Virus record (IMG/VR): IMGVR_UViG_3300028584_001240
Origin: a virus
Lineage: Duplodnaviria > Heunggongvirae > Uroviricota > Caudoviricetes
Reading direction: 5' to 3' (one strand)
DNA: 64,000 bases
In this document: in pieces, positions 2,122 through 47,327 of the stretch
Layout: each line of letters starts with the position of its first letter
How positions within the stretch are numbered: position 1 is the first letter of the stretch
Program-made: the position numbers and the translations under genes
Notes under the pieces: generated by a model
The model's database searches: none
What the model was told of the DNA's origin: nothing
What the model saw: only the letters and a program-made list of their open reading frames with translations

Positions 2122-2148
2122 AAAAAACCCGCACTAGGCGGGCTTTTT
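2122..2148. terminator. Rho-independent terminator after tyrS (bidirectional shape)
   Basis: aaaaaaCCCGCactagGCGGGcttttt. Stem 2128-2132/2138-2142, flanked by an A-run and a T-run. The tyrS stop codon lies in the loop. Confidence 0.85.
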
Positions 2149-3393
2149 AATGAGTCGAAACTCTCGTTTACCACGTTGAAAGACAGCGAATTTACCAAAC
2201 TTGAAATCCGTAATTTCAAGAGCGTTCATATCATCCTCGCTGACTACCAACTTGTTACCGTTTACTTGAACCGCACCACTATGGATAAACTCTCGGCCTT
2301 GTCGTTTAGACTTAGCCAAACCAGTAGCGACCATCAAGTCAAGCACATTCAATGTTTCAGGAACAACAGCGACCATACCGTTCTTTTCAAGGTTGACAAA
2401 ATCATCTTCTTGCAAGCTATCAAAGTTGTTATCAAACAAAGCTTTGATGTTACGCAATACCGAATCAAGTGCTGCTTGACCATGAACAATAGCAGTTAAT
2501 TCCTCTGCCAAAAGCTGTTGAGCCATCGGTTTAGTGCGTTCTTTATCAGCTTCAAGGATAGCGTCAATTTCTTCAATAGACTTAAAGGACAGCATTTTGA
2601 AGAACTTCGGAATATCCGCATCGGCTACTTTCAACCAAAACTGGAAGAAATCAAAAGGGCTGGTCATTTCTGAAGATAACCAAACCGCACCGCTTTCACT
2701 TTTACCAAACTTCGTGCCATCCGCTTTGGTCAGCAAGGGAATGGTCAACCCAGTGGCTACGACATCATTACCTTCTTTACGATGGATAAGGTCAATACCA
2801 GCAGTGATGTTACCCCACTGATCGCTACCACCCAATTGAAGACGGCAATTTTTCTCTTTCATCAAGTGATGGAAGTCCATTGACTGCAGGAGCTGGTATG
2901 AGAACTCAGTAAAAGAAATACCTTGATCATCACGATCCAAGCGGCTACGTACCGAATCTTTACTCATCATAGCATTCACAGAGAAATGCTTACCCACATC
3001 ACGAAGGAAATCAATAACTGAAAGGTTAACAGTCCAATCATGGTTATCAACAAGTTCTACATCACCCAGAATATGTTTGATTTGACCAGCAATACCTGCT
3101 TTGAAACGATTAACGGTTTCCGCGTCATTCAAAGTACGTTCTTGTGCTTTAAAGCTAGGGTCACCAATCATGCCGGTAGCACCACCAATCAATGGGAACA
3201 CAGTATGGCCCGCTTTCTTAAAGCGAAGCATAGTAATCAATGGCAAAAGACTACCCACATGCAAAGACTCTGCTGTTGGGTCAAACCCGCAGTATAGGGA
3301 CAAGCCATTATCCATAAGGTCTGAAATTTTGCTTTCGTCTGTCATCTGAGAAACGAGGCCACGTTGTTTGAGTTCTTGAATAAATGCGTTCAT
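2134..3393 (-). CDS. tyrS: Tyrosyl-tRNA synthetase
   Basis: Class I aaRS. HIGH-type motif (ESLHVGSL), KMSKS-type KFGKSESG, GGATGMIGDPS, and a C-terminal S4-like domain. Start moved from the track's GTG at 3408 to ATG 3393, which has GGAG 9 nt upstream. Confidence 0.95.
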   Translation of the reverse strand: MNAFIQELKQRGLVSQMTDESKISDLMDNGLSLYCGFDPTAESLHVGSLLPLITMLRFKKAGHTVFPLIGGATGMIGDPSFKAQERTLNDAETVNRFKAGIAGQIKHILGDVELVDNHDWTVNLSVIDFLRDVGKHFSVNAMMSKDSVRSRLDRDDQGISFTEFSYQLLQSMDFHHLMKEKNCRLQLGGSDQWGNITAGIDLIHRKEGNDVVATGLTIPLLTKADGTKFGKSESGAVWLSSEMTSPFDFFQFWLKVADADIPKFFKMLSFKSIEEIDAILEADKERTKPMAQQLLAEELTAIVHGQAALDSVLRNIKALFDNNFDSLQEDDFVNLEKNGMVAVVPETLNVLDLMVATGLAKSKRQGREFIHSGAVQVNGNKLVVSEDDMNALEITDFKFGKFAVFQRGKREFRLIKKPA

Positions 3394-3581
3394 AATATTT
3401 TTCTCCACGAAAATTTAATTGTGTTTGTGTATAGCTGATTTTTTAGTTAAATAGATAATGCCTCTAAAAGAAGCATAGAGCGGAGAAGTTCAATATCGAA
3501 CGGTGAAAGACTTTTGAAAGTGAAATGTTTTTGAAGCGTTCATGATGTAGTTCCTTTGATTGCGTTTCGTTTAATATGGCT

Positions 3582-3610
3582 ATTCTATCAAAAAAACAAA
3601 AAGAAAGCAA
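3582..3610 (-). promoter_or_regulatory. Putative sigma70-type promoter of tyrS (long ~190-nt leader)
   Basis: On the minus strand: TTGCTT, 17 nt, then TAGAAT with TG at the extended -10 position (tTGaTAGAAT). Confidence 0.45.
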
Positions 3611-3621
3611 GAAAATATTGC

Positions 3622-4215
3622 TTAATTATGTGATGGTTTCCATTGTTTCACTGGTTTTACTATGTCGGATTTAAAAATATCGTTACTACCTATTGTATAA
3701 TTGCTCATAATATCAAGCTTGAACAAATGACTATTATTTTTCAAAGTCTCGGAAGCAATTACATTGTAGACGGTCTTTTGATTTACAAATTCATTCTGGC
3801 TGATTTTATTCTTTTCGATGTTCTTTAATGTATCATTAGAAAGATAACTGCCAATTTCTTTCATGGATGAATGGAACTCATCAACGGTCTTGTTTTTACG
3901 ATGAGATAACATAGATTCTATCTGGTTGTCTGAAATCGCCAGATTGCTTGTATCAAGGGTTGGAAGGTCATTTTTCCACTCTGTTTCTATTTGTTTAATC
4001 TTTGGATAGAGATCAATAAAATCACGTCTTAAAACGACCACCTGTAAATCATTGTAATAGTTTTGAAAATAATTTTTAATATGATCACTTTTCGAATGTT
4101 GCATCAATTCATTGATAGTAAAAACTTGTTTCAATACGGCCAAATCATCCAAACCTTTCTGGTTAAGTGCGTTTAATTCTTTATCTTCTATGACATCAAG
4201 CATAACAACTACCAT
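3622..4215 (-). CDS. Hypothetical protein
   Basis: Long ORF with no motif I recognise. Start is uncertain (ATG 4215 or 4203). The track's 4251 start lies upstream of a likely extended -10 (TGtTAAACT) and inside the terminator tail. Confidence 0.55.
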   Translation of the reverse strand: MVVVMLDVIEDKELNALNQKGLDDLAVLKQVFTINELMQHSKSDHIKNYFQNYYNDLQVVVLRRDFIDLYPKIKQIETEWKNDLPTLDTSNLAISDNQIESMLSHRKNKTVDEFHSSMKEIGSYLSNDTLKNIEKNKISQNEFVNQKTVYNVIASETLKNNSHLFKLDIMSNYTIGSNDIFKSDIVKPVKQWKPSHN

Positions 4216-4250
4216 TTGTTTATTAATACAGTTTAACACAAAAATACACA

Positions 4251-4276
4251 AAAAAAAAGAGACATCGAAGTCTCTT
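4251..4276 (-). terminator. Rho-independent terminator after the Nudix gene
   Basis: Minus strand: aaGAGACttcgatGTCTCtttttttttt. Confidence 0.8.
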
Positions 4277-8627: not shown

Positions 8628-9524
8628 TTAACGAATGCTTTCATTCGGGTGAGACATTGAAAAGAGTTTATCAATAGCCTTACCAATGGATGTTTCAAGA
8701 ACAGCGTCTAGACCGAACAAGCCAGCCAAACCACCACTTTTAGCCTTAACATCAGTATTCACCTGATACAGTTGGGCACCGTCTTTAAAAGCCTTCAAAA
8801 TAGCCGAGCGACTATCACCAATTTCATCAACAAGATGTTCCTTCAACACATCTTGTGCCATGTAAAAGTCACCTTCCATCAGCTTTTCAGGATTAATCAT
8901 AGGGCGATATTGCAATACATGGTTTTTGAACGCAGTGTGAATTTCAACCAGTTTTTGTTTGAAAATAGTTTCTTCGGCTTCACTTGGAAGTTTAGTAGGA
9001 ACCACAGAACGCTTATTGGTGCCTGCTGTGTAAACTCGAACATCAACACCGATTTTAGTCAGCACTTCTTCAAAGATAGGCACTTGCGAAACAACACCGA
9101 TAGAGCCAACAAAAGCAAACGGTTGAGCCACAATGCGATCACAGACCGAAGCCATCATATAACCACCACTGGCCGCGACTTCATCAACAAAACCAGTAAC
9201 CTTCAGACCGTGAGCACGAAGACGGTTGATTTGCTGAGCAGCATTCGCATAGGCGGTTACACTGCCACCGGGGCTTTTAATAATCATGTAGACAGCATCA
9301 CCACTTTTGGAGTTAAGGATAGTCATGTCCACATCACGTTCCAGTTTTTCAAACGCATTGCCTTTATCTTCGGCGTTAAAACGAAGAACAAAGATCTTAT
9401 TCAAATAAACGACATCTTTCGTTTTTGCTTTCAATTCACGTCGAACTTCACGACTCTCAATCTTTTTAATGAGTTCACGGTTCATATCTTTGATTTCTGT
9501 TTTAAAACGAATTTCTTTAGACAT
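8628..9524 (-). CDS. S49-family serine peptidase (SohB/SppA-like, ClpP/crotonase fold)
   Basis: IKSPGGSVTAY..VDEVAASGGYMMASVCDRIVAQPFAFVGSIGVV is the typical S49 core. AGGAG SD. Confidence 0.8.
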   Translation of the reverse strand: MSKEIRFKTEIKDMNRELIKKIESREVRRELKAKTKDVVYLNKIFVLRFNAEDKGNAFEKLERDVDMTILNSKSGDAVYMIIKSPGGSVTAYANAAQQINRLRAHGLKVTGFVDEVAASGGYMMASVCDRIVAQPFAFVGSIGVVSQVPIFEEVLTKIGVDVRVYTAGTNKRSVVPTKLPSEAEETIFKQKLVEIHTAFKNHVLQYRPMINPEKLMEGDFYMAQDVLKEHLVDEIGDSRSAILKAFKDGAQLYQVNTDVKAKSGGLAGLFGLDAVLETSIGKAIDKLFSMSHPNESIR

Positions 9525-9963: not shown

Positions 9964-10569
9964 ATGAAAAAAATGTTAAACAAAGAAGCACTACTCCATA
10001 AAATAAAAGAAAAAAGTACAAAGTTTCTAGAAATAAAAAATCCGGGTGAATTAAATTGTACACCAGAAGGAAACGTTATTGATTTTAATAATATATCATA
10101 CATTAGATTACATAAAGGTCTTTTTATCATCAATAAACACACCGCCAAAAGCTTTTTTAACATTGCTTTTGAAGGTGAAGAAGACGAATATTTAGAAAAA
10201 ATTATCGAAATTTTTAATATATACGCTCATTTTGATTACTTTTTGTATACACCTAAAGACGATGGTTTTAATGTTTACAGCAAAGGTTTTGAAGCGAACT
10301 ATATAGAAAGGAAAATTAAAAAAGAACCTGAAATTGAACAAAAAGAAGGCGTATTTTATTCCAACCTTTGTAAAGAAATATCGCTTGGGCCAATGATGGA
10401 ATGTACATTAGGTATGAAAAATACAGCTTATAGTTATAAAGAGTTATATGAAAACGTCATCTATCCACAATTTCAAGAAATGCTGAAAGAAAGCATTGGA
10501 TTAGAAATTACGCACATGAGCCAGTTTGATGACCGGGCTTTTGAACTATTAAAGATGGCAAGAATTTAA
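9964..10569 (+). CDS. Tail-motif paralogue family member
   Basis: 201 aa. Ends ..DRAFELLKMARI. AAGGTGG SD. Confidence 0.75.
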   Translation: MKKMLNKEALLHKIKEKSTKFLEIKNPGELNCTPEGNVIDFNNISYIRLHKGLFIINKHTAKSFFNIAFEGEEDEYLEKIIEIFNIYAHFDYFLYTPKDDGFNVYSKGFEANYIERKIKKEPEIEQKEGVFYSNLCKEISLGPMMECTLGMKNTAYSYKELYENVIYPQFQEMLKESIGLEITHMSQFDDRAFELLKMARI

Positions 10570-10594
10570 CCACATTGCTGAACAGGAGGTAACC

Positions 10595-10930
10595 ATGTTA
10601 AATGCATTAAGGTATGTGTGGTCATTGTATGATTACTATACAAAGTTTAAACAATCCAGCGATTTCTTCATGCATGATGAATTATTGACGATTACACGTC
10701 TGCGAAATATGAACGGATTGATTGTTGACAGTCGCGGTGAACTTGGATGTTCCTCAATATCCATCAGTTCAAAATATGTAACATTGGACACACCACAAGC
10801 AACACTAGATTTATTTTTCAATAAGTCATGGCTCGAAGTGAAAGCTAAATATCCACGTAGACATTGGTATTATCAAATGGAAAAAAGAATGATTAATTAC
10901 CAACGTTCAAAAAATAAAAATGTAAAATAA
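10595..10930 (+). CDS. Hypothetical protein
   Basis: 111 aa with a strong SD (cAGGAGGtaaccATG). No recognisable motif. Confidence 0.7.
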   Translation: MLNALRYVWSLYDYYTKFKQSSDFFMHDELLTITRLRNMNGLIVDSRGELGCSSISISSKYVTLDTPQATLDLFFNKSWLEVKAKYPRRHWYYQMEKRMINYQRSKNKNVK

Positions 10931-10932
10931 AT

Positions 10933-10970
10933 AAAAAAGGCACCTAAGATAATTAGAATGCCTTTTTTTT
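10933..10970. terminator. Probable bidirectional terminator between convergent units
   Basis: aaaaaaGGCAcCTAAgataaTTAGaaTGCCtttttttt. An interrupted hairpin flanked by A- and T-runs. Confidence 0.5.
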
Positions 10971-10981
10971 GTAAACAATTT

Positions 10982-11779
10982 TTAAATAGCAGTCATCAAT
11001 AACAAATCTATTTTATCGGCAATATTTTCTTGTGGTATATCTAAAAATTCTTGATAAAATCCATTATGAAGATTACTCACATACATCATCAATATTTCAT
11101 CTGTAAAAACATCAATATCATGATCAGTAAAAAGGGTGCTGGCTTCTATAATATCTTCCAAGGTCACTAAGCCAGCTAAACTTTCTGGAAGTTTATATAC
11201 CTTTTTATCTGATAGGCTAAAATATAATGAAAAGGGTTGAGTATGATTAAAAAAACGGACTGTTGGAAATAAAGCTATCTTTCCATCGCGGGTTATTGAA
11301 AAGTTTCTAATGAATTCATATTGTCCAACATTTCTATAAGACCGACTAACACATGATGTTATACCATATTTATGGCTATCTTTTTCCAACATGTATGTTT
11401 TTGCAAAAGTATAAAATTCATGAGGCTTTATATCACTACTCAATTTCAATAATCTTGAGAAATTGGTGTTTTTTTGAAAAGAATTAAGAGCTTCATTGAT
11501 AAAATTAAAATCTTTTCTTGATGTTTTATGAATTTGAAACATTTGATTGAACTTGTCTAGATAAGAAAGATCTTTGAGACAAATTGAATGGAAAAGAGGT
11601 TGTCCCGGTGAAATACCGAAACTGAAAAATGGTTTATTTATATTAATGGGGTTCTTATGTTTTTTAAACAAAATATGAACTTGAGTGTCCATCATAGGAT
11701 ATTGTTCATATTCAAAAAATGTTGTTTTTGTTGTTTTGGTATTAAATGCCCCAGAAACAGCATTCCGAAAATTTTCCAT
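10982..11779 (-). CDS. Tail-motif paralogue family member
   Basis: Ends ..ADKIDLLLMTAI. Start moved from TTG 11791 to ATG 11779 (GGAG 7 nt upstream). Confidence 0.8.
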   Translation of the reverse strand: MENFRNAVSGAFNTKTTKTTFFEYEQYPMMDTQVHILFKKHKNPININKPFFSFGISPGQPLFHSICLKDLSYLDKFNQMFQIHKTSRKDFNFINEALNSFQKNTNFSRLLKLSSDIKPHEFYTFAKTYMLEKDSHKYGITSCVSRSYRNVGQYEFIRNFSITRDGKIALFPTVRFFNHTQPFSLYFSLSDKKVYKLPESLAGLVTLEDIIEASTLFTDHDIDVFTDEILMMYVSNLHNGFYQEFLDIPQENIADKIDLLLMTAI

Positions 11780-11812
11780 AATAAGCTCCAAAAATAATGA
11801 ATCATAATAACA

Positions 11813-12604
11813 TTATATACTATTCATTTCAACCAAGTTCATCATTTCAGCGTAATTAGAACAACTGTCAAAAATACTCTCAACCAGTTTCCTGTCGTTA
11901 AGGAGACTGTCAATATAGTAAAAGAAAATATCGTATGTCCAATTACTATCAATTGAAGTCTTTAAATCATTAATCTCAACACCATTATCGAACAATTGTT
12001 CAAAGGTCAATAAACACCTATCAGCATTGTTTCCACTAAACGTTGAAATATTCGCTGCTTTATTCAGTTCAGGCGATAGCAAAATTGAATAGGTCTTTTG
12101 TTTTAAAGAGATATCCAACACTAAGATTGGGCGAAATTTTCCAGAATTATCTAATACCATTCGCTTGTCATAAGAATAATAGAAGTTATGTCTTTTCGGT
12201 GAGTGATAAAGGTCTATATCTGATAATGTGCATGAATTATAAAACATATGCTCAACTCGCTGGTTAACAGTGACGACTCGATGAATGGATTTTAAATCAA
12301 AATCACCCTTGGTTTTAATCATATGAACAAGGGCATCATTCAAACAAAAAGATGAAAATGCTTTTTTGAGTAGCTTGTTTTCTTCTCGGGTATACATAAT
12401 ATCTGGAATACATGATAAATAGACATCTTCATTATAAAAAACTGAACGCGAAAGAACCTTCCCATGAAAATTTAACAAGGCGACTGGCTCATTGTTCTGA
12501 TGTGTTAATGAAAGTGTTGAACTGTTTAAAAATGTGGCCGAAACAAAATGACCATCAAAGGTTTTAGAAACAGCGTCAAGAAGCGTCTGGTTAATGTTTG
12601 ACAT
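11813..12604 (-). CDS. Tail-motif paralogue family member
   Basis: 263 aa. Ends ..AEMMNLVEMNSI. Starts 2 nt after the upstream stop. Confidence 0.8.
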   Translation of the reverse strand: MSNINQTLLDAVSKTFDGHFVSATFLNSSTLSLTHQNNEPVALLNFHGKVLSRSVFYNEDVYLSCIPDIMYTREENKLLKKAFSSFCLNDALVHMIKTKGDFDLKSIHRVVTVNQRVEHMFYNSCTLSDIDLYHSPKRHNFYYSYDKRMVLDNSGKFRPILVLDISLKQKTYSILLSPELNKAANISTFSGNNADRCLLTFEQLFDNGVEINDLKTSIDSNWTYDIFFYYIDSLLNDRKLVESIFDSCSNYAEMMNLVEMNSI

Positions 12605-12606
12605 TG

Positions 12607-13521
12607 TTAATACGTCAACATCTCAGTTACTTTCAATCGACCAATCAACTCGGATCTTGGTAAGGTCATCATTAATTTTTTCTCCTTCAATTTTAAGTTT
12701 TCAGCTCTACCAATAATATTGACCACACACTTTATGAATTTAGCATTAAATTTCTCAAATAGCTCATCAATAGAAGCTTCCATATTATCAGAAAACATAG
12801 GAACTGCATACTTAAATTTTAAAGTTGATAAGACAGGTAGGTTAAACAAAAACCCCGGCACGAATGCTCCTTTATCATCTCTCATCAATACAATTTCTAC
12901 TTTGGCCGGAGAAAATGAAAAGCTCGTTTGTTTTCTTGAGTTCTCAGTCTTTGAAAGATAACCATAATAAGATTTGCACAAACGTTGCTCTTTTGTATCT
13001 TTGTAAGTTTTAGTCTTCACAAAAAAATCTTTCAACTGTTGTGGAATAGCACTTTTTTCAAACTTTTCAAAGAATTCAAATTCATTAGTTTCTTTAATAT
13101 AACGATCAATAACCGTTTCCATAATGTAGGATGGAAAATCACGACTAGCCATCAACTGTTCAAATAAGGTGAGAACAACTTTACTTTTATCAATCTTATC
13201 ATTAAAAATTGAATAAACAGCTTGACCATCATACACATTGTTATAAACTCGTAAGTATTTATTATCAAAGGGCTTTGGCCCAGTCTCAAGGATAATTCTG
13301 AATCCATAAGTTTGATAGGGGTCATTAATTTCAATAGGATAAGTTTTAGGCCCATACTTATCAACCAGTATAGCTCTAATTTGTTTTATAAGTGGATCAT
13401 ATTCTTTCATAGCGGCCTCTTGTTTTTCTTTATTATCTTTTGTTGCTTGATTAAAAGTAGTCACTTTGACAGCACCACTGTTGATACTGCTAAGTAAGGC
13501 TGTTAGATCAATATTTTTCAT
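12607..13521 (-). CDS. Tail-motif paralogue family member
   Basis: 304 aa. Ends ..LIGRLKVTEMLTY. Confidence 0.8.
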   Translation of the reverse strand: MKNIDLTALLSSINSGAVKVTTFNQATKDNKEKQEAAMKEYDPLIKQIRAILVDKYGPKTYPIEINDPYQTYGFRIILETGPKPFDNKYLRVYNNVYDGQAVYSIFNDKIDKSKVVLTLFEQLMASRDFPSYIMETVIDRYIKETNEFEFFEKFEKSAIPQQLKDFFVKTKTYKDTKEQRLCKSYYGYLSKTENSRKQTSFSFSPAKVEIVLMRDDKGAFVPGFLFNLPVLSTLKFKYAVPMFSDNMEASIDELFEKFNAKFIKCVVNIIGRAENLKLKEKKLMMTLPRSELIGRLKVTEMLTY

Positions 13522-13536
13522 TATTAATATCCTATC

Positions 13537-14316
13537 TCAAATATGATGCATTGCAATGATGGAAAGGTGATCTTCAAAAGATTCCTTGTTAAGAGCTTTA
13601 AAGCCTGCTTCATCAATATCAAATAATTTTTTGAAAAGAGTTTGAACAATAGGATCGATTTCATTTTTGACTTTTGTCAAAAAGCCAGCAAGATTGTTCT
13701 GCATGGTGTGAGCACTAGACAAATGAATATCATGATCAATAGAACCAAACTTAATTTTAATATAAGGATACGAAGTAAATTGACCATCACGATATTGAAA
13801 CATCAGTTTAGTGGTCATCATGATCATTGAATTTTGAACTTTGTATAACTTAGCATTCAAAAAATGGTTTGAATAGCTTCTCATCGCATAAAAATAAGAA
13901 TGTGAGCTGTACGATCTAATGAAACCAAACTGTGATTTAAAGAGGTTCTTATCATGAAAATCTGAAGACTTTAATAAACTGTATTTGGTCGTAAAGTCTA
14001 AAAACCCCTTATTAAAATCTTTGATGAATGAATCAGCATCTTTATGCATAAGCATTTGAGATAGCTCATCAAGAAATGTTTCATTGATATCCGTTGAGAT
14101 GTGAATCGTCTTTTTATCTTGTCGATTAACATAGACATAAATAAATTTGTGCTCATTATTGACGCACACAGTAAATTTAATGACATCAGACTGACCCATA
14201 TCAACTTTATGTTTAATATTGGTTCCAATCACATCAAGATTAAATCTTTCTTTCAATAGATGACTAAAATCCTTCTTAATGACCAAAAGGTGATTGACTT
14301 CTTTTTTACTTGTCAT
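13537..14316 (-). CDS. Tail-motif paralogue family member
   Basis: 259 aa. Ends ..FEDHLSIIAMHHI. ATGA overlap with the upstream gene. Confidence 0.8.
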   Translation of the reverse strand: MTSKKEVNHLLVIKKDFSHLLKERFNLDVIGTNIKHKVDMGQSDVIKFTVCVNNEHKFIYVYVNRQDKKTIHISTDINETFLDELSQMLMHKDADSFIKDFNKGFLDFTTKYSLLKSSDFHDKNLFKSQFGFIRSYSSHSYFYAMRSYSNHFLNAKLYKVQNSMIMMTTKLMFQYRDGQFTSYPYIKIKFGSIDHDIHLSSAHTMQNNLAGFLTKVKNEIDPIVQTLFKKLFDIDEAGFKALNKESFEDHLSIIAMHHI

Positions 14317-15125
14317 ACTTTTAACATCTCCAATACTTTAAAGTCATTAATCGAACCGTTAGCTTCACTGCTAATGCCAGCAACATTAAATTGATTGACA
14401 TAGAAAGTGTATAATTCAGGTGTTAGTTTATTCATGAAATCATTAATATAATCATTAAGTCCAACTAAGGTTGGGTTTTTATTAATAGCTACATTTCTAA
14501 CAATATCAACTGATGAAATAATGCTTATTGTTGTTGTGCTCAAATCCGGGTGCTCAGTATTTAATCTATAATGGTTAGTATCTAACAAATTAACAAACTG
14601 ACCAGAGTGTTCATCAATAAAGAATCGAGTTTTTCCAAATCCACGTAAATTGATACACAGATCAATAATGGGTTTAATTTTAAAATCTTCGGTCACCACA
14701 TAACCTAATTCGGTAAACAACATATTCCATGCATTCGTGTAATAGAACATAGGAGAGAGCGTTATTCTTTTTCCTACTATTTTCGACCTATTGAAAGTAT
14801 CAGCCTCAAAGAAAATAGGGTCTTTAAAAATAATTTTTGAAATCTCATGGTTAAACAAACTATCTGAAATCATTTGACACGTCTTAAAACTATCAAATTG
14901 TGTAAAAATAGAGTTGGCTGTCTCACGGAAATCAGGATCGGTTAATTTGTAGTAAGAAAATTTATGAGTTTCACTGTCATATCCAAAGTTAAGCACTTTA
15001 CTCATTGTCACATTGTTAAAAAGATAAAATGTCTGTTTGTCTTCATGAAAATCAAGAGAATAATCATCACCCAGTATTAAGCTGAATGCTTGTTTAATGC
15101 TATCAATGGTAGTGAATTCATTCAT
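14313..15125 (-). CDS. Tail-motif paralogue family member
   Basis: 270 aa. Ends ..INDFKVLEMLKV. 1-nt overlap with the upstream gene. Confidence 0.8.
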   Translation of the reverse strand: MNEFTTIDSIKQAFSLILGDDYSLDFHEDKQTFYLFNNVTMSKVLNFGYDSETHKFSYYKLTDPDFRETANSIFTQFDSFKTCQMISDSLFNHEISKIIFKDPIFFEADTFNRSKIVGKRITLSPMFYYTNAWNMLFTELGYVVTEDFKIKPIIDLCINLRGFGKTRFFIDEHSGQFVNLLDTNHYRLNTEHPDLSTTTISIISSVDIVRNVAINKNPTLVGLNDYINDFMNKLTPELYTFYVNQFNVAGISSEANGSINDFKVLEMLKV

Positions 15126-15886
15126 TAGATATTTTCCATAGTCATTAGTGTTAGATAACTTTTAATATCATCCTCAGAAAAACAGGTTATATCATCAAGA
15201 CAAAATTTTTCTGAAATAGTTGATGAAGCGTTTTTTAAAACAACAGCGTAAATGTTGCTGCACATTTTATTAACTCTATTCAAAAAGTCTTCGTCATCCT
15301 TTAAATCAAGAGAAATGGAATGAGCCGTAATAACAAATTGGATCATCTTACTAGATTTTAAAACGGAACCATCCAAATAGTAATAAGGTTTACTTTTAAG
15401 ACGTGCGTTCATGAAAGAAAATTCATTAAAATGGCTTTCAAATGAAATTTTACCTTGCAACATTTCTTTATGAATACAATATTTACTTTTTCTTTTTTTA
15501 TCATGGTAAATTTCACCCATAGGCTGAGCATTAAATTTAATATGCACTGAACCTACCTGAAATTCACTAAGAATGGCGTTGATAGAGTCTTTAATAAGAT
15601 GTAGTTGTTCATTTTCTTGTTTAGACATGAAAAACCAATAGAAGTCTCGAATCAGTCCGGGGTTGGCACTGGATTTAATAATAATTTCTTGAGTGTTGTG
15701 TAAATAATCTGCAGAAATAGAGTGCAATTTATTTTTTTCTGTTTTGTAGTAACAGGTAATAATAGATCCTGCTTGATCCGCATTGTCTTCAATAGAAAAA
15801 GAATCTAATTCACGAACTAAAACATCAACAATAAATTTTACAATATTGTTTTTAATAAACGTAGAATTGTCTAATAAAGTTGACAT
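15125..15886 (-). CDS. Tail-motif paralogue family member
   Basis: 253 aa. Ends ..IKSYLTLMTMENI. Confidence 0.8.
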   Translation of the reverse strand: MSTLLDNSTFIKNNIVKFIVDVLVRELDSFSIEDNADQAGSIITCYYKTEKNKLHSISADYLHNTQEIIIKSSANPGLIRDFYWFFMSKQENEQLHLIKDSINAILSEFQVGSVHIKFNAQPMGEIYHDKKRKSKYCIHKEMLQGKISFESHFNEFSFMNARLKSKPYYYLDGSVLKSSKMIQFVITAHSISLDLKDDEDFLNRVNKMCSNIYAVVLKNASSTISEKFCLDDITCFSEDDIKSYLTLMTMENI

Positions 15887-15937
15887 GAATTAAATCTCCA
15901 AAATATGGCACAATTATACCATATTTTTAGGGTTAAA

Positions 15938-16771: not shown

Positions 16772-18052
<1,281 letters not shown>

Positions 18053-18090
18053 TCAAATATTCGATATTCTAACACAGTAATACTATTTAT

Positions 18091-18855: not shown

Positions 18856-18873
18856 TTTTTGTGTTTCCTATCA

Positions 18874-21119: not shown

Positions 21120-21142
21120 ATCTGTAACTCCATCATTAAATT

Positions 21143-23526: not shown

Positions 23527-23527
23527 A

Positions 23528-27875: not shown

Positions 27876-28300
27876 ATAGTTTTAACGAATACGAGTGTTT
27901 AAAGAACATTTATTCAAGAATGATCATGCTCACAGCTATATCACCAATAGCTGTCTTATTTTTTGGCCCATTTTTGTTTTTATATATATTGATACCTAAT
28001 CTTTATATTTATGTTAAATATTATAAAAGACATGGCAATACAAAATTTGAAGGGCATATCAGAAAAATACTTAAAACATGTTTAATTTCGTTAAGTGTTC
28101 TATTTATATTTTTGTTACCACTTATATCAATGGCCTTCATAGACTTTACAAAAATATATCAAGGAACAGCTTATATGATTTTAATGGTAGCAATGATTTG
28201 TGTTGGTGTTGGTCTTTTGATTTCGTGGGCTTATTATTTTCATAACTTAATGAAGCTATCAAAAACTATAGATGAAAATGACTTTAACAAACTTATTTAA
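27872..28300 (+). CDS. 4-TM membrane protein, tandem paralogue 3 of 3
   Basis: 142 aa. ATGA overlap with paralogue 2. GAGGTG SD. Contains NIYSRMIM.., KYYKRHG.. and WAYYFHNLMK. Confidence 0.8.
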   Translation: MNSFNEYECLKNIYSRMIMLTAISPIAVLFFGPFLFLYILIPNLYIYVKYYKRHGNTKFEGHIRKILKTCLISLSVLFIFLLPLISMAFIDFTKIYQGTAYMILMVAMICVGVGLLISWAYYFHNLMKLSKTIDENDFNKLI

Positions 28301-30274: not shown

Positions 30275-30275
30275 T

Positions 30276-34600: not shown

Positions 34601-35494
34601 ATGAAAATAACACCCAAAGAATTAGAAGTCTTGAAAATCTATACTCAACAACTTAAACTGAGTGTTGTTGATGGCGTATTGCAGTTAAACGATGAACCAT
34701 TAGACTTATTTCCCTATCTTTTAAATAAATATCGTGGACTTCATGATATTCATATAGATTTTACGTCTCAAAGCATTAGAAATAATAATAAAGGTACTTT
34801 GTCTGTCTATGATAATAGTTTTACAGTGCTCACAGGTGACATTTTAATTAATGAAAACAATGTAAGATTTTTAGTTGATGGGTTTACATTTGAAAATGAT
34901 GAATTCTGTAAATATGTGTTAGAAATGAAGTCACTCAAACAAAATAGTAAAGATTTCTCAATGACATTAAATTATGAGAACTTTGGTAAATATAGATTAC
35001 GATGTGGAATGAATAATTCAACAATTTTGATGAGAATGTTAGCCGATCCATTGAATGAAACAAAATTTAAATTTCCTTATTTTAATTACGAAGAGTCGAG
35101 AGTAATTAAAGATAATACTGTATTGTATGAAACAATATGTAAAACTGAAATTGAAGAAGTTGACAAATATAGATCTTTATATGTAGCAAAAATACATGAA
35201 CTAATAAAAACATGTCAATTTGAACAGGGGCGATTAATTAATATTAAAACAACAGTTGATCTCAATTCAGCAGATATTTTATTTGACACGAATTTTATTT
35301 TGAATAAAAGTGAACAAAGAAAAATGTTGGAATATGTGTTCAATAACTATGATGAAATCAATGTTCCATTATATTCCTCAATCATAAAAAAGAGTGAAAA
35401 TTTTACAGCGAAAACATTTCAAACAGATGTTGTTTTCAATAGCCGAGAAATCATTAAAAACTTCTTAGACCTAACAGATATGGCAACTATATGA
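34601..35494 (+). CDS. Tail-motif paralogue family member
   Basis: 297 aa. Ends ..IIKNFLDLTDMATI. Confidence 0.8.
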   Translation: MKITPKELEVLKIYTQQLKLSVVDGVLQLNDEPLDLFPYLLNKYRGLHDIHIDFTSQSIRNNNKGTLSVYDNSFTVLTGDILINENNVRFLVDGFTFENDEFCKYVLEMKSLKQNSKDFSMTLNYENFGKYRLRCGMNNSTILMRMLADPLNETKFKFPYFNYEESRVIKDNTVLYETICKTEIEEVDKYRSLYVAKIHELIKTCQFEQGRLINIKTTVDLNSADILFDTNFILNKSEQRKMLEYVFNNYDEINVPLYSSIIKKSENFTAKTFQTDVVFNSREIIKNFLDLTDMATI

Positions 35495-36378: not shown

Positions 36379-36463
36379 CTATGTAATAATTGTGTAAAGC
36401 TCATTGTAAATGATTATTATTTTGATATGATATGATCAAGATAACACCACAATGGAGTTTACC

Positions 36464-36874
36464 ATGAAAAAGATAATCACAAGTTTAGTTTTAGCCAGCA
36501 CATTACTATCAGTAGGTGTAGCTCAAGCACGCGGTGGACATCATCACGGCGGTGGAAATGATTTCGGTAGATTTGTGGGTTACACTGCGGCTGCAGCTTT
36601 AACAGTTGGTGCTGTATCCTATGTCATTAATTCTGGAAATAACAATGCTTACAATAGAGGTTATAATGATAGGGCTAGGTATCAAGCAGCAGCCAGAGAA
36701 CAAGCGGCTTACGATTATGAAATGAGCAGACGTTATCAGCCACAACCTGTATACTATTCACAACCTGTCTATTACGCTCCACCAGTAAGACAACAAGTTA
36801 TTTATGTTGATAGACCTGTTTACTACACACCACCTGTGCAAAGAGTGTATTACAATGGATACTACCCATATTAA
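36464..36874 (+). CDS. Exported Tyr/Pro-repeat protein
   Basis: Start moved to ATG 36464 (GGAG 8 nt upstream). Signal peptide MKKIITSLVLASTLLSVGVAQA, then GGHHHGGG, a hydrophobic segment, and a repeated (Q)PVYY motif (PVYYSQPVYYAPPV..RPVYYTPPV..VYYNGYYPY). Confidence 0.7.
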   Translation: MKKIITSLVLASTLLSVGVAQARGGHHHGGGNDFGRFVGYTAAAALTVGAVSYVINSGNNNAYNRGYNDRARYQAAAREQAAYDYEMSRRYQPQPVYYSQPVYYAPPVRQQVIYVDRPVYYTPPVQRVYYNGYYPY

Positions 36875-37255: not shown

Positions 37256-38095
37256 TTATACACTAATCATATCATTAAGCTTTAAAACATCTCGATAATC
37301 AAGATTAAAATCAATACCATATTCATCATTTAATCTTGGCTTCAAGTTTTTACAAGCCAAATCATAGAGATAACGATATACATAATCTTGCAATTCACTT
37401 TCAGCAATCACCAATGTTTCTTCTGGCACTAATTCATCTAATACTGCCAAGTCACTTTTATAATTTTCTTTTGGCTGACTGGTAATAAAAAGCTCTTGTG
37501 AACTTTTGGTATATACCATATTGACAACGACTTTATTTAAATCTTGTGTAAATAAAAGCTTGTCAGTTTCTAAACTTTCATAAAAAGCAAAAATACAGAT
37601 TGAATATTTTAACACAAATTGAAAGAAACTTCTATGTATATCTACAAAATCAGTACCTGAAAAATAAAATTCATTATCATGCTGCATAATACAGATTTCA
37701 CGTTGTTCAAGATTCGGGCCATCAGTGTAACTGAAAAAATAAAGCATTTCTTTTGGGTGTAAAATAAAACTAATATTATGTTTATCTTTAAAAATAGCAA
37801 AAAGCTTATCAACCAAGACATCAGAAACATGAAAAAAGATAGGGTATGCTAAATAACACATTACTCCATCAATTGTAGCCGTTTCATTAACGTAGAGTTT
37901 ACGAGCAATAGTTTTCAAAACGCATTGATTATTTTTATAAAAATAAATATCTTTGAGATCTTTCAACGTACATGACACCCCATTACTGGAAAATGCATGC
38001 ATCGTTTTTGTCATGTCATCATAATAGAAACTGATTTCAACGCCGTAAATACGAGACGTTTTAATAAACCAGTGTTGTTCAACATTCGGATGCAT
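37256..38095 (-). CDS. Tail-motif paralogue family member
   Basis: 279 aa. Ends ..DYRDVLKLNDMISV. Sits between the tRNA genes and the tRNA-like element. Confidence 0.8.
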   Translation of the reverse strand: MHPNVEQHWFIKTSRIYGVEISFYYDDMTKTMHAFSSNGVSCTLKDLKDIYFYKNNQCVLKTIARKLYVNETATIDGVMCYLAYPIFFHVSDVLVDKLFAIFKDKHNISFILHPKEMLYFFSYTDGPNLEQREICIMQHDNEFYFSGTDFVDIHRSFFQFVLKYSICIFAFYESLETDKLLFTQDLNKVVVNMVYTKSSQELFITSQPKENYKSDLAVLDELVPEETLVIAESELQDYVYRYLYDLACKNLKPRLNDEYGIDFNLDYRDVLKLNDMISV

Positions 38096-38149
38096 AACAA
38101 GACCTCAAAAAAATAAACCTTATAGAATTATAAGATTTATGTAATAATG

Positions 38150-38224
38150 TTGAAGAGGAAGGATTTGAACCTCCGACATACCCGCCCAAAATGCAGGCTG
38201 CTCTACCCACTGAGCTACCCTTCA
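38150..38224 (-). tRNA. tRNA with non-canonical anticodon arm; anticodon most simply UUU (Lys); CCA not encoded
   Basis: Manual fold of the minus strand: acceptor TGAAGGG/CTCTTCA (U1-A72, one G-U); D arm GCTC-AGTGGGTA-GAGC; anticodon arm GCCTGC-ATTTTGG-GCGGGT (6 bp, or 5 bp with a 9-nt loop); variable ATGTC; T arm GGAGG-TTCAAAT-CCTTC; discriminator A. Confidence 0.7.
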
Positions 38225-38272: not shown

Positions 38273-38349
38273 TGGTCGGAGTGGCAGGATTTGAACCTGC
38301 GGCATCTTGCTCCCAAAGCAAGCGGTCTACCGGGCTGACCTACACTCCG
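38273..38349 (-). tRNA. tRNA-Pro (anticodon UGG), CCA encoded
   Basis: Manual cloverleaf: CGGAGTG-TA-GGTC-AGCCCGGTA-GACC-G-CTTGC-TTTGGGA-GCAAG-ATGCC-GCAGG-TTCAAAT-CCTGC-CACTCCG-A-CCA. All stems are Watson-Crick. C1-G72 and G37 are typical of tRNA-Pro. Confidence 0.9.
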
Positions 38350-39336: not shown

Positions 39337-39999
39337 TTAAATAGTGGACATTTCAAACAGTAAACATAATGAATCATAATCCATAGTTTCAGGTGTAACA
39401 CCTACTTTGTATTCATCTGGAATGTCTTCATATCGTGTTCTTAATAAGGCTTTGATGGCTTTGCTTTGATCGGTAATTCCATGCTCAATAAACACATCGC
39501 CACGAGTAAATGAATACTCTCGAAGATCGACAAAAAAGCCAGTCTTCTTGTAATTTTCTATGTCATCTTGTTTGTATTCAGCAAACGTTCCTTTTTCTTT
39601 ATTCAAATTAATACAATGATTGAATCCATTGTTCCAACGAATAATCACACGACTAGGTTTAAGAATATCGTCAATAATATCAGAATCATAATGAACCGAT
39701 ATCGTATAGTGATAATTGTCATAACGCATGATGGGATATTTTAACATAGTAGCAAATGAATTAAATTTATCCATAAAACGCAAACTGTAATTAAAATACG
39801 ATTCGGTTGTGATATTATTTGTTTTTAAAATGTCATTAACTAAATCGGCCCAACCACTATAAGCACAATCTTTAATAATACGTTTATCTTTCCAGTAGAA
39901 ATGAAAAATATGTCTTCTCGACTTTGATGGTGTTTTAAAGTTGATTTGATCATCGTTTTTAATGTAACGAGATCCTACTGCTTTATCAAATTTCTTCAT
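39337..39999 (-). CDS. Tail-motif paralogue family member
   Basis: 220 aa. Ends ..MDYDSLCLLFEMSTI. Confidence 0.8.
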   Translation of the reverse strand: MKKFDKAVGSRYIKNDDQINFKTPSKSRRHIFHFYWKDKRIIKDCAYSGWADLVNDILKTNNITTESYFNYSLRFMDKFNSFATMLKYPIMRYDNYHYTISVHYDSDIIDDILKPSRVIIRWNNGFNHCINLNKEKGTFAEYKQDDIENYKKTGFFVDLREYSFTRGDVFIEHGITDQSKAIKALLRTRYEDIPDEYKVGVTPETMDYDSLCLLFEMSTI

Positions 40000-43885: not shown

Positions 43886-44614
43886 ATGAATGAGAAATAC
43901 ACAATAGTCCAGAATGATAGTTTAGAATTTGATGAATTGTTCGATGTCAGTCAAATTAATATGAGTTATTATTTTTCAAATTGGGTTAACAATGAGATTA
44001 AAATGACAAAAATTATTAAAAAACTTTATCTGGAAGGTATAAAAGTTGATATGATTAATATGTATGCAAATCCAGACAAGGGAGATCACCGTGAATATTG
44101 TGATGTTGAGAATCGTGATGATAGAATATATTACAATTTTATTAGTCAATTATTAAAACAATCTCATGCTAGAAATGACTTCAATTATTATGAACATTTA
44201 CCATTATCTGATCGAAAAGGTTATATGGATATTTGCTATCTCTTCAATAGGCCAAAAATAGAAATAAGATATCACACTAAAACAATTAGCACTATTTTTA
44301 CATTTACTGAGACTGGTTTGGTTATTGTATACAAAATTAACAATAATGACAGTAATAAAATGATGATAGAAATAAAAATCAATGAGAATAATGAAATATT
44401 ATCAACAATTGTTCACTTTAATGGAAAGATTTATAAAGAACCAGAAAAGATAAAATTAAGTCATAAACAGCTAGATTATCTTATTGCTTTATGTCATTAT
44501 GGCATGATAGAAGAGAAAGATTTTAATGTAGAGCCATATATTGATAAGGTGTTAGCAGAAGATTATAAAGATGTAATTAATTATTTTAAAGTAAAAGAGA
44601 TGACTTACATATGA
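43886..44614 (+). CDS. Tail-motif paralogue family member (sub-cluster E, 1 of 2)
   Basis: 242 aa. Ends ..VINYFKVKEMTYI. Shares SNKMM(I/L).I.IN, (K/Q)QLDYLI and NARNDF/HARSHL blocks with the next gene. Confidence 0.8.
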   Translation: MNEKYTIVQNDSLEFDELFDVSQINMSYYFSNWVNNEIKMTKIIKKLYLEGIKVDMINMYANPDKGDHREYCDVENRDDRIYYNFISQLLKQSHARNDFNYYEHLPLSDRKGYMDICYLFNRPKIEIRYHTKTISTIFTFTETGLVIVYKINNNDSNKMMIEIKINENNEILSTIVHFNGKIYKEPEKIKLSHKQLDYLIALCHYGMIEEKDFNVEPYIDKVLAEDYKDVINYFKVKEMTYI

Positions 44615-45405
44615 CAAATCAATATATCGTAAAAATACTCAGCTCAAAACATGTCTTTGATGAGACATCTAATAAGGGTGTTGAGAATAAATATTTAACT
44701 GTAAAAACAGAAAATGAAGACTTTAAAAAGTTATTGGATATTAGTGCTATAAACAGCAGATATTATTTTTCAGCGTGCTTAAATATTAAAGATAAAGTTA
44801 CTCAACATCTAAAAGAGACGAATAAAAAATTCGCAGACGTTAGACCTTATCACGCTCCTGATAAAGATGATTGCACGGAATATACAGATGTAAAAAATCA
44901 GAACTCTACTGTATACATGGATTTTATTGAGAACCTTGTTAAAAATGCACATGCAAGAAGTCATTTAACATTTGTGGACTATATTAAAGACATTCATAAA
45001 AAAGCTGACGTTATTTTTTCTCACTTTTTTGACAATGCTAAGATAAGTATCACCTATTTTACAAAACCTATCATGCTTTGTATGAATTTTGATAAAAATG
45101 GATTGAATATTGTCTATATGCTAAATAGTTGTGACAGCAATAAAATGATGTTAGACATTACTATTAATCACAACACTGAAATTATCTCAACAGAAGTTTA
45201 CTTTAATTTTAATAATACAAGATCAAATGAAACAGATATGATTACTTTAAACCATCAACAATTAGATTACCTTATTGTATTAAGTCATTATGCTGACGGT
45301 GAAGAGATTGATTTTATGGTTGAAAAATATGTTGATGACATTTTAGCTGAGAACTATCAAGATTTACTCGATTACATTAAAGTTAAAGAAATGATGCACA
45401 TCTAA
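44611..45405 (+). CDS. Tail-motif paralogue family member (sub-cluster E, 2 of 2)
   Basis: 264 aa. Ends ..LLDYIKVKEMMHI. ATGA overlap with the previous gene. Confidence 0.8.
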   Translation: MTNQYIVKILSSKHVFDETSNKGVENKYLTVKTENEDFKKLLDISAINSRYYFSACLNIKDKVTQHLKETNKKFADVRPYHAPDKDDCTEYTDVKNQNSTVYMDFIENLVKNAHARSHLTFVDYIKDIHKKADVIFSHFFDNAKISITYFTKPIMLCMNFDKNGLNIVYMLNSCDSNKMMLDITINHNTEIISTEVYFNFNNTRSNETDMITLNHQQLDYLIVLSHYADGEEIDFMVEKYVDDILAENYQDLLDYIKVKEMMHI

Positions 45406-45829: not shown

Positions 45830-45917
45830 TATAATCTCCTATTAGAAGCACTATAATAACATAAACAAGCAGAAATGACAATAAAAATGATTAATTGAAA
45901 GAAAAATAAAAAAACTG

Positions 45918-45946
45918 TTGACATTTTTTTAATTAAAGATCACAAT
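45918..45946 (+). promoter_or_regulatory. Putative promoter of the thrS leader
   Basis: TTGACA (45918-45923), 17 nt, then CACAAT (45941-45946). Confidence 0.5.
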
Positions 45947-45969
45947 ATAAGTAATTGGAGAAAATTCAG

Positions 45970-46047
45970 ATGAAATTATTTGCAGTAAACACAACGACTA
46001 CAACAACTCAGTTCAATAGCTGGGCTGGTCGATTGTTGCTGTCTTAA
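45970..46047 (+). CDS. Thr-rich leader peptide of thrS (25 codons)
   Basis: GGAG lies 9 nt upstream. ATG AAA TTA TTT GCA GTA AAC ACA ACG ACT ACA ACA ACT CAG .. TAA gives MKLFAVNTTTTTTQFNSWAGRLLLS. Six consecutive Thr codons occupy 45991-46008. Too short for the ORF track. Confidence 0.75.
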   Translation: MKLFAVNTTTTTTQFNSWAGRLLLS

Positions 46048-46093
46048 AATAATCGGAACCACAAAAACCCAGCTAAACGGCTGGGTTTTTTTA
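46017..46093 (+). promoter_or_regulatory. Transcription attenuator: competing antiterminator and terminator helices
   Basis: TAGCTGGG (46017-46024) is the exact reverse complement of CCCAGCTA (46068-46075). The same CCCAGC (46068-46073) pairs with GCTGGG (46080-46085) to form the terminator. CTCAG (46007-46011), directly after the Thr codons, can pair with CTGGG (46020-46024). Confidence 0.7.
46063..46093 (+). terminator. Intrinsic terminator of the thrS attenuator
   Basis: aaaaaCCCAGCtaaacgGCTGGGtttttttt, 55 nt upstream of the thrS ATG. Confidence 0.8.
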
Positions 46094-46148
46094 TGCCTAA
46101 AATAAATGATTAACACAAACACAAACTAAACTATCAAGGGGAAATAAA

Positions 46149-47327
46149 ATGAACGACAAATTAAATGAAGAAAAGAGATACATGAAAGTCGCCAAAGAAA
46201 TGAACTTATTCATGTTGGCTGAAAGTGCAGGTGTTGTTTACTGGAAACCAGAAGGGCTTAAATTGTATGAGAATTTAAAATCTTTTATTCGTAAACACCA
46301 TGAAGACGCTGGTTATCTTGAAGTCAAGAGTCCATCCATTGTGGTGCCTAGCTTATTTGAGCAGTCTGGTCATATGGATAAATACAAAGATAACATGTTC
46401 TTTCTCAATTCATCAGAAGCCAGTAACTACGCTCTCCGTCCTATGAGCTGTCCCAACCATATCCTAATCTATCAATCAGAAAAAAGAAGCTACCGTGAAC
46501 TCCCATTACCAATATTTGAGTTTGGTGAGGTGTTTCGTAATGAAGCGTCTGGTGCATTACAAGTGTTATTCAGACAAAGACAATTCTGTCAGGATGATAG
46601 TCATGTGTTTGTGAATGAAGAAAATCTAATCAGTTCGGTCAATCAATACATACAGATGAGCCAAAAAGCGTATGAAGAACTCGGATTCAAAAAGATTAAA
46701 TACGCCATTGCGTTACGTCCAGAAAAAAGATTTGGTGATGACATCTTATGGGATAAAGCCGAAGAAGCCTTGCGAGAAGCCTGCAGAATGAATAATCTTG
46801 ATTTCGTAGAAAACGAAAATGACGGGGCTTTCTATGGCCCGAAACTAGAACTCCAAGTAGAAGACAAACTCGGCAGATCATGGCAATTAGGTGTGATACA
46901 GCTTGATTATGTTCTTCCAGAACGTTTTGGACTTGAATACATTGATGCCGATAACAAACCTAAGCGTCCTATTATTCTCCACCATGCCGTATTAGGTTCA
47001 CTTGAACGCATGATAGGGATCTTGTTGGAGTCCTTTGGTAAAGACATACCTGACTTCTTACACCCTATGAAATCAGTGGTTATTCCAGTATCCGAAAAAT
47101 CTATGGAGTATGCAAAGGTCGTATTCTCTCATATGGATAAGAAATCATCTAAACTGGATCAAAGTGCTGATTCATTAGGTAAGAAGATTCGATACTGGAA
47201 AGAACGTGGTGTTCCTGAGATCATTGTAGTCGGTGAAGCTGAACAAAGTAAATATGACAATGAAGGTGTGATTAGTTTTGTCGTCAATCTTGGTGCTGTC
47301 AAAGAAGTCAGAGAAATTAAGCCATAA
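46149..47327 (+). CDS. thrS: Threonyl-tRNA synthetase, catalytic plus anticodon-binding domains only (no N-terminal TGS/editing domains)
   Basis: 392 aa. Aligns by eye with E. coli ThrRS from about residue 242 to the end: RPMSCPNH, YRELPLPIFEFGEVFRNEASGAL..FRQRQFCQDDSHVF, GAFYGPKLE, ILHHAVLGSLERMIGILLE. The Zn ligands (Cys, His, His) are conserved. Confidence 0.93.
   Translation: MNDKLNEEKRYMKVAKEMNLFMLAESAGVVYWKPEGLKLYENLKSFIRKHHEDAGYLEVKSPSIVVPSLFEQSGHMDKYKDNMFFLNSSEASNYALRPMSCPNHILIYQSEKRSYRELPLPIFEFGEVFRNEASGALQVLFRQRQFCQDDSHVFVNEENLISSVNQYIQMSQKAYEELGFKKIKYAIALRPEKRFGDDILWDKAEEALREACRMNNLDFVENENDGAFYGPKLELQVEDKLGRSWQLGVIQLDYVLPERFGLEYIDADNKPKRPIILHHAVLGSLERMIGILLESFGKDIPDFLHPMKSVVIPVSEKSMEYAKVVFSHMDKKSSKLDQSADSLGKKIRYWKERGVPEIIVVGEAEQSKYDNEGVISFVVNLGAVKEVREIKP

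Follow-up and report, generated by a model that had tools for sequence, protein, structure and literature searches.

The DNA analysed here is a 64-kb stretch (64,000 nucleotides; the window) of the IMG/VR virus record IMGVR_UViG_3300028584_001240, which is filed under the Caudoviricetes and carries genes for three aminoacyl-transfer RNA synthetases (aaRS). A six-frame survey yields 80 non-overlapping open reading frames (ORFs) of at least 60 amino acids, with a coding density of 92% and a G+C content (GC) of 29-37%. Pfam and NCBIfam scans of these ORFs reveal enzymes for tyrosine (TyrRS), serine (SerRS) and threonine (ThrRS), and each scores above the cutoff of its family model (TIGR00234, TIGR00414 and TIGR00418), which bears out the identities and coordinates given in the initial annotation. 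No aaRS domain beyond these three was found by the Pfam scan of the 80 ORFs. ARAGORN and Rfam find only two transfer RNA (tRNA) genes in the window, tRNA-Lys(UUU) and tRNA-Pro(UGG). Rfam likewise gave no T-box or other leader RNA ahead of the aaRS genes, as these two tRNAs were all that it returned.

Four proteins of the window, namely SerRS, ThrRS, a 714-amino-acid protein and a nucleotidyltransferase, are 100% identical to proteins P0367, P0001, P0378 and P0382, respectively, of one 1,851,360-bp Joint Genome Institute (JGI) contig. The window is therefore ~3.5% of a 1.85-Mb contig. A sister genome of 1,859,102 bp (Ga0308158_10000001) encodes TyrRS and SerRS proteins that are 94% and 89% identical to those of the window, and this genome appears in four data blocks as contigs larger than 1 Mb. 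Further members of this lineage are contigs of 1.54, 1.36, 1.33, 1.04, 0.87, 0.60 and 0.52 Mb, as well as a 437-kb IMG/VR relative that is colinear with the window and whose ThrRS and SerRS are 85% and 74% identical. A megablast of the window gave no nucleotide match to GenBank phages, and exact 41-42-mers drawn from it had no match in IMG/VR, the GTDB species representatives or the JGI metagenome contigs. There is no nr or UniRef entry among ~100 ThrRS, 46 SerRS and 10 glutamyl-tRNA synthetase (GluRS) clusters of the lineage, despite sightings in many runs.

The TyrRS is of bacterial type, and its alignment with bacterial TyrRS structures in the PDB extends over the full length of the protein. 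Pfam recognizes tRNA-synt_1b (3.5e-76), SYY_C-terminal (7.9e-15) and S4 (3.7e-05) domains, and thus an S4-like C-terminal domain is present. The class I motif equivalent to KMSKS reads KFGKS, and HIGH is replaced by HVGS through a change of the second histidine to serine (residues about 48-52). All seven TyrRS copies of the lineage, which are 65-94% identical, retain HVGS, and this conservation argues that the variant is probably under selection rather than a sign of decay. Full-length bacterial-type TyrRS proteins that are ~47% identical to that of the window are also found in Rak2-like jumbo phages of >350 kb (Cronobacter phage GAP32, Pectobacterium phage CBB and Serratia phage BF). However, HVGS in place of HIGH distinguishes the window enzyme from its Rak2-like counterparts, and the records of these phages give no match to SerRS or ThrRS, whereas the window carries all three.

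The SerRS, also of bacterial type, includes an N-terminal coiled-coil arm (Seryl_tRNA_N, 30.4 bits) and a tRNA-synt_2b domain (8.1e-42). Residues 31-415 align with solved bacterial SerRS structures, and the motif 2 and motif 3 segments, FRSEAGS and GSALAVGR, match those of 2dq3. The gene lies within a 13-kb co-directional array of lineage-specific genes of ~250 codons, wherein there is zero gap to the downstream gene at 15938-16771.

The ThrRS is a short form whose score is barely above the family cutoff. Its next-best family is prolyl-tRNA synthetase at ~70 bits, and every PDB match is a ThrRS. The protein spans profile positions 171-535 of the 565 in TIGR00418, which correspond to Escherichia coli ThrRS residues ~242-601. 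It therefore consists of the class II catalytic core and the HGTP anticodon-binding domain, without the TGS (N1) and editing (N2) domains. The segments RPMSCPNH, QDDSHVF and LHHAVLGS align with solved ThrRS structures, and they hold the Cys and two His residues that serve as active-site zinc ligands. No open frame extends the gene upstream, and it has its own Shine-Dalgarno (SD) site and ATG start preceded by a 320-nucleotide intergenic region. One divergent and one convergent gene flank it.

Short ThrRS proteins of 386-435 amino acids are present in 16 of 17 IMG/VR contigs checked, which range from 99 to 578 kb and from 27 to 59% GC (the loci include L091, L108, L131, L139, L142, L148, L153, L159-L164 and L168). 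A bacterial-form ThrRS of ~645 amino acids was found in one of the 17. A literature search found no paper that describes the short form as the rule in large viral contigs. The same domain content is seen in a truncated E. coli ThrRS (residues 242-642; PDB 1evk and 1evl) and in the yeast mitochondrial enzyme MST1 (PDB 3ugq). However, the former is a laboratory construct and the latter is organellar, whereas the short ThrRS of the window is a natural gene that recurs in huge viral contigs.

The initial annotation had placed the three genes on different strands and in different transcription units, and had concluded that they do not look like one acquired block. The first part stands, since ThrRS has its own promoter and terminator candidates, TyrRS sits between terminator-like hairpins and SerRS is inside the array. 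The conclusion holds only in part, because these units are separate but the genes nevertheless form a conserved syntenic island in the relatives. The layout of the window, in which TyrRS is followed by SerRS 11-14 kb on, by ThrRS 22-29 kb on and then by the gene for a LigA-type DNA ligase, recurs in the sister genome and in the 437-kb relative. Given this synteny, the trio is an inherited island rather than three recent and separate pick-ups. Three aaRS genes per 64 kb also exceed what random scatter would give (P ~0.005-0.04, assuming 10-21 aaRS genes per 1.85 Mb).

Other relatives carry additional synthetases in the same region. In the 1.54-Mb relative, GluRS is located at ~804 kb, TyrRS at ~823 kb (19 kb apart) and ThrRS at ~860 kb, whereas only 6 kb separate GluRS from ThrRS in the 1.04-Mb relative. 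A 604,313-bp contig holds ThrRS, SerRS and GluRS together, and another relative has an arginyl-tRNA synthetase (ArgRS) gene 2 kb from ThrRS.

Sequence identities within each enzyme family bear on the age of these genes. TyrRS is 65-94% identical inside the lineage and at most 49% outside it. For SerRS the values are 59-98% and then 52-55% to Oceanospirillales, Halomonas and Pseudomonadales, and for GluRS they are 60-100% and then 56% to Pseudomonas and Entomomonas, so that the closest named cellular sequences for both enzymes are from Gammaproteobacteria. ThrRS is 57-100% identical inside the lineage and at most 44% identical to cellular proteins (Burkholderiales and others; Beta- and Gammaproteobacteria) among the matches listed, which were drawn from GTDB. 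Because each clade is ~57-100% identical internally and is then set apart by a gap from cellular sequences, the pattern fits old acquisitions from Proteobacteria, wherein each synthetase would have been acquired once and then passed down vertically within the lineage.

We propose that these intact genes make up a conserved translation island whose members are only loosely clustered. It would run from GluRS (in some relatives) through TyrRS, SerRS and the tRNA genes to ThrRS and the NAD-dependent ligase, and each synthetase would be transcribed alone or with ORFan neighbours. The synthetases probably serve to keep tRNA-Tyr, tRNA-Ser and tRNA-Thr charged during infection when host synthetases or tRNAs are limiting or attacked, as has been proposed for huge phages (PMC7162821). 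The features of the window are listed in Table 1.

Table 1. Features located in the 64-kb window.
Feature	Position	Strand	Remarks
Cys/His-tailed small paralogues	576-866, 1144-1449, 1410-1664		84-101 amino acids
Terminator-like hairpin	2121-2149	-	overlaps the TyrRS stop codon
TyrRS, bacterial type, 424 amino acids	2134-3408	-	TIGR00234, 386.2 bits (cutoff 113.8)
Terminator-like hairpin	3458-3476		upstream of the TyrRS start
Large paralogue, 664 amino acids	5898-7892	-	no Pfam or PHROG match
SppA-like S49 peptidase; SPFH/Band_7 protein; Bax-inhibitor-1/YccA-type protein	8628-9524, 31533-32441, 50209-50859		scattered among ORFans
L..M..I-tailed ORFs	9964-24142, 28800-31013, 34601-35494, 37256-38095, 39337-39999, 43886-45405, 47371-53618, 57004-57822, 60913-64000		
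SerRS, bacterial type, 423 amino acids	16772-18043	-	TIGR00414, 481.9 bits (cutoff 301.65)
Large paralogue, 714 amino acids	24585-26729	+	no Pfam or PHROG match
Three tandem paralogous membrane proteins	26877-28300	+	142-175 amino acids
tRNA-Lys(UUU)	38149-38224	-	between SerRS and ThrRS; ARAGORN; Rfam tRNA, 49.9 bits
tRNA-Pro(UGG)	38273-38349	-	ARAGORN; Rfam tRNA, 69.1 bits
Pol-beta-type nucleotidyltransferase, 364 amino acids	42737-43831	+	PHROG 24943; 2.3 kb upstream of ThrRS
Sigma70-like promoter candidate, TTGACA-17-CACAAT	45918-45946	+	upstream of ThrRS; consensus match only
ThrRS, short, 392 amino acids	46149-47327	+	TIGR00418, 392.4 bits (cutoff 383.65)
Intrinsic-terminator-like hairpin and T run	47349-47368	+	22 nucleotides past the ThrRS stop
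NAD-dependent DNA ligase, LigA type	55044-56918	-	Pfam; syntenic neighbour of ThrRS in each relative examined (L002, L084, L089)

The expression signals of the window are of bacterial type. GGAG, GAGG and AGGA motifs form a sharp peak at positions -13 to -9 before 64 ATG starts, and neighbouring genes overlap by ATGA, wherein the start codon of one gene meets the stop codon of the other. Taken with the intrinsic terminators and the bacterial-type aaRS, these signals argue for translation on bacterial ribosomes rather than for a nucleocytoplasmic virus. Giant eukaryotic viruses such as Mimivirus, Klosneuvirus and Tupanvirus are AT-rich, exceed 1 Mb and possess tandem paralogue arrays, many ORFans, aaRS, tRNAs and an NAD-dependent ligase, and in all of these respects they resemble the lineage. 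Unlike these viruses, the window has SD sites, ATGA-coupled genes, intrinsic terminators and synthetases of bacterial type, and an origin from a giant eukaryotic virus was ruled out by the SD peak, the ATGA overlaps and the terminators. Recoding of TGA or TAG under an alternative genetic code, which was considered as an explanation for the many ORFs of ~250 amino acids, was also rejected because code 11 leaves the conserved genes intact, the genes overlap by ATGA in the typical way and each of the three stop codons is in use. The replicon thus appears to use bacterial-type promoters, SD sites and intrinsic terminators, and the remainder of its content would be mostly lineage-specific ORFans.

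The three enzymes charge the amino acids that bear a hydroxyl group, and the initial annotation offered coincidence, high Ser/Thr/Tyr demand or replacement of targeted host charging steps as reasons for this. The hydroxyl theme is best read as most likely a coincidence, which was the first of these options and is the one favoured by the evidence. The shared chemistry would then reflect the chance of which island members fall in this window and sub-lineage. Among the proteins encoded by the 80 ORFs, Lys (8.6%), Ile (7.8%), Asn (6.4%), Phe (6.3%) and Tyr (5.25%) are all inflated relative to a mid-GC baseline, for which E. coli figures were used, whereas Ser (7.0%) is slightly raised and Thr (5.3%) is not raised. 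Demand would therefore predict synthetases for Lys, Asn, Phe and Ile and fits TyrRS at most, and so the demand explanation is not supported. At the level of the lineage the trio is not exclusive either, because GluRS and ArgRS are found in relatives, and it was the presence of many other aaRS genes in the rest of the genome that had been named beforehand as the observation that would turn the trio into an artefact of sampling. Replacement of host charging steps is a generic rationale for phage aaRS that neither requires nor explains a hydroxyl theme.

It is very unlikely that the trio was selected as a hydroxyl set, whether by a proteome rich in Ser, Thr and Tyr, by a link to phosphorylation or by the need to offset a host attack directed specifically at the charging of Tyr, Ser and Thr. 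Tyr is used about twice as often as in a mid-GC proteome and Ser slightly more often, and two exported proteins are rich in such residues (14% Tyr for 36452-36874 and 22% Ser plus Thr for 53718-54950). However, Thr is flat, and neither Ser nor Thr is as inflated as Lys, Asn, Phe and Ile, for which the window has no LysRS, AsnRS, PheRS or IleRS. The synteny of the trio in the closest relatives, and the lack of a lineage GluRS in the closest, 437-kb relative, would suit a selected set, but GluRS and ArgRS have been added in relatives that share the island. Similarly, tRNA-Ser genes occur in three of 12 related loci, but the tRNAs of the window itself are for Lys and Pro, with none for Ser, Thr or Tyr. 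The Pfam scan detected neither a kinase nor a phosphatase among the window ORFs, which does not favour a link to phosphorylation.

Other phages that encode these synthetases carry them singly. Among GenBank phages, Rak2-like jumbo phages encode TyrRS, Brevundimonas phages encode SerRS, and Sinorhizobium phage Phosso and a 636-kb uncultured phage encode ThrRS, and the phage records that hold all three enzymes look like host contamination. The Tyr/Ser/Thr trio does not generally travel together in phages. In addition, 56 of the 1140 possible aaRS triples (~5%) are themed under our own list of chemical and synthetase-class groupings, and the chemical theme does not go beyond chance.

We consider the best joint explanation to be a huge phage or phage-like extrachromosomal element with an inherited translation island and a coincidental hydroxyl theme, to which we assign a probability of roughly 0.6. 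The host of this replicon would be Gammaproteobacteria-like. The syntenic 437-kb relative is classed as viral in IMG/VR, only ~10 of the 80 window ORFs have a Pfam match and ~85% are ORFans, with similar proportions across ~300 kb of related loci, and the lineage includes aaRS, tRNAs and an Rnl1-like ligase. A single huge-phage genome can encode as many as 15 aaRS (Al-Shayeb et al. 2020, PMC7162821). As in those phages, several bacterial-type aaRS and tRNAs are scattered over a very large and ORFan-rich genome, the enzymes are related to yet distinct from those of the host phylum, and the repertoire differs between relatives. However, the largest reported phage genomes are 735 kb (2020) and 841 kb (2025; bioRxiv 10.1101/2025.01.14.633092), whereas the contig is 1.85 Mb and structural genes were not seen in the window or related loci, and therefore membership among the phages is putative. 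A literature search for phages of ~1.85 Mb returned nothing relevant.

A phage-like element is ranked ahead of a bacterium, although the figure given above also includes the verdict of coincidence. It is unlikely, though the possibility deserves weight, that the contig represents the chromosome of an uncultured and AT-rich bacterium that evolves fast, such as an intracellular relative of Gammaproteobacteria. The trio would then be housekeeping enzymes out of ~20, and its theme would again be coincidental. Contigs of 1.0-1.86 Mb recur across independent samples, the expression signals are bacterial, and the closest cellular relatives of the aaRS are consistently Proteobacteria. Genes of cellular type for membrane quality control (SppA/S49, Band_7 and Bax1-I) also suit a bacterium, as does the failure to see phage structural genes in the window and related loci. 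If 1.85 Mb held ~21 aaRS genes, about one of its 29 windows should contain three or more.

Several observations nevertheless argue against a bacterial chromosome. About 73% of the typical genes of the collection have a Pfam match, as opposed to ~15% in lineage loci, and the excess of ORFs without a match extends over ~300 kb. The lack of any nr or UniRef entry means that the lineage was never deposited as an annotated bacterial metagenome-assembled genome despite its many sightings. All bacteria have GluRS, yet its distribution in the lineage is patchy, and none was detected on the 437 kb of a close relative. In its short form the ThrRS resembles those of huge viral contigs rather than the bacterial form of ~640 amino acids, and one relative is filed as viral. 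Genes for a T4-type RNA ligase, R2K ATP-grasp and TnpB proteins, a PcfJ-like protein and an AHH nuclease are also present in relatives. Pfam and Rfam find no rRNA genes, ribosomal proteins or full aaRS set in the window, a search that covers ~3.5% of the contig.

Other facts weigh against a huge phage-like element with a coincidental trio. The contig is more than twice the size of the largest reported phage genome (841 kb). Neither the window nor ~300 kb of related loci showed a capsid, terminase or portal gene. The word phage in the initial annotation was thus an assumption, given that structural hallmarks are absent from the window. Only the Tyr, Ser and Thr enzymes were seen in those parts of the 1.859-Mb sister and of the 437-kb relative that were examined, and a lineage-type GluRS was found neither on the whole 437-kb contig nor, among the clusters checked, on the 1,851,360-bp contig. 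The aaRS list of the latter rests on the 64-kb window, the HIGH motif of TyrRS is atypical, and the activity of the three enzymes is read from their conserved motifs.

The domain loss in ThrRS raises a separate question of translational fidelity. N-terminally truncated E. coli ThrRS reportedly charges tRNA-Thr and cannot clear Ser-tRNA-Thr. By analogy, the ThrRS of the window should charge tRNA-Thr yet not clear Ser-tRNA-Thr in cis. Lacking a cis-editing domain, it would depend on host factors or accept errors. One possibility is that this enzyme, together with the phage SerRS, alters the fidelity of Ser/Thr decoding through tolerated or even deliberate Ser-for-Thr mistranslation, with TyrRS being unrelated. 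The entire N-terminal editing region is gone while the zinc site is kept, short ThrRS proteins turn up repeatedly in contigs of huge viral type with 27-59% GC, and SerRS and ThrRS occur together in the window, the 437-kb relative and the 604-kb contig. However, the loss could equally represent gene streamlining, with host trans-editing factors or the host ThrRS at hand, and for many huge contigs that have a short ThrRS a SerRS is not shown. Since mistranslation is purely conjectural, we regard this possibility as barely plausible.

Other genes near the island are also related to tRNA. The nucleotidyltransferase upstream of ThrRS has a GDLDLL motif and is 57-76% identical in relatives, and it could be a CCA-adding or tRNA repair enzyme. 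In the 437-kb relative, a tRNA-Ser(UGA) gene stands beside the tRNA-Lys and tRNA-Pro genes (L089, 4857-5123), whereas the equivalent site in the window has Lys and Pro only. tRNA-Ser genes near aaRS genes are also found in related loci L084 and L212. A T4 Rnl1-type RNA ligase (Pfam RNA_lig_T4_1), which is typical of phages and involved in tRNA repair, is located 2.3 kb from TyrRS in the 1.54-Mb relative (L204, 6573-7718), and no homologue was seen in the window.

There are 35-37 ORFs among the 80, mostly in tandem arrays and encoding proteins of 190-300 amino acids, that share a C-terminal helix, and the extreme end of this helix reads [LIV]x[LIVM]x[ED]M-x-x-[IYV]-COOH. Examples of this L..M..I tail are LLEMLTI, VKEMTYI and IIEMMYI. 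The proteins are otherwise barely alignable, and blastp and phmmer join only small subgroups. The tail is also present in relatives (L002, L088, L089, L209 and L228). It could be a tag for packaging, export or assembly, or the proteins could form an extremely divergent superfamily.

Additional gene families of the window have counterparts in the relatives. The two large paralogues share a conserved C-terminal half (PTIAK..., KKYxHLY... and G-S-x-SWCI), and homologues stand one after another in the 1.04-Mb relative (L084, 11224-18243). The genes for the S49 peptidase, Band_7 and Bax-inhibitor-1/YccA-type proteins, which represent cellular-type membrane-protein quality control, are all kept in relatives. 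The small paralogues have a Cys/His-rich tail, C-x-C-x-C-H ... L-H-COOH, and copies are present in L204, L209 and L210. Each of the three tandem membrane proteins has ~4 predicted hydrophobic helices and no family match. In the sister genome, a TnpB/IS605 OrfB-type gene of 473 amino acids with a Cas12f1-like TNB domain (L209, 12531-13952) is inserted between homologues of window genes 1667-2044 and 1410-1664. This gene is absent from the window, and its presence in the sister suggests that transposons have been active in the lineage recently.

Three PHROG matches that carry phage-related labels were examined and set aside. The portal match is spurious, as the ORF encodes a NUDIX protein. The match to a head maturation protease is the generic S49 peptidase, and the match to a DNA polymerase is the Pol-beta-type nucleotidyltransferase.

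As originally posed, the finding carries little weight, since phage aaRS are known and the hydroxyl grouping fails against both the relatives and amino acid usage. The trio is a set of further examples of synthetases in a huge phage-like genome. The setting of the genes is of more interest. A natural ThrRS of the editing-deficient type, whose short form is widespread in huge viral contigs, bears on the way in which such elements deal with translational fidelity. A fuller picture, which we offer only tentatively and with more doubt than belief, is of a phage or phage-like element of ~1.85 Mb whose island includes an editing-less ThrRS and whose genes bear the C-terminal L..M..I tag in nearly half of all cases, and wherein Tyr, Ser and Thr could be the complete aaRS set of the sub-clade. 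The replicon combines megabase size with content that looks viral and a size that looks cellular. If it is truly a phage, the upper size limit of phage genomes would be redrawn.

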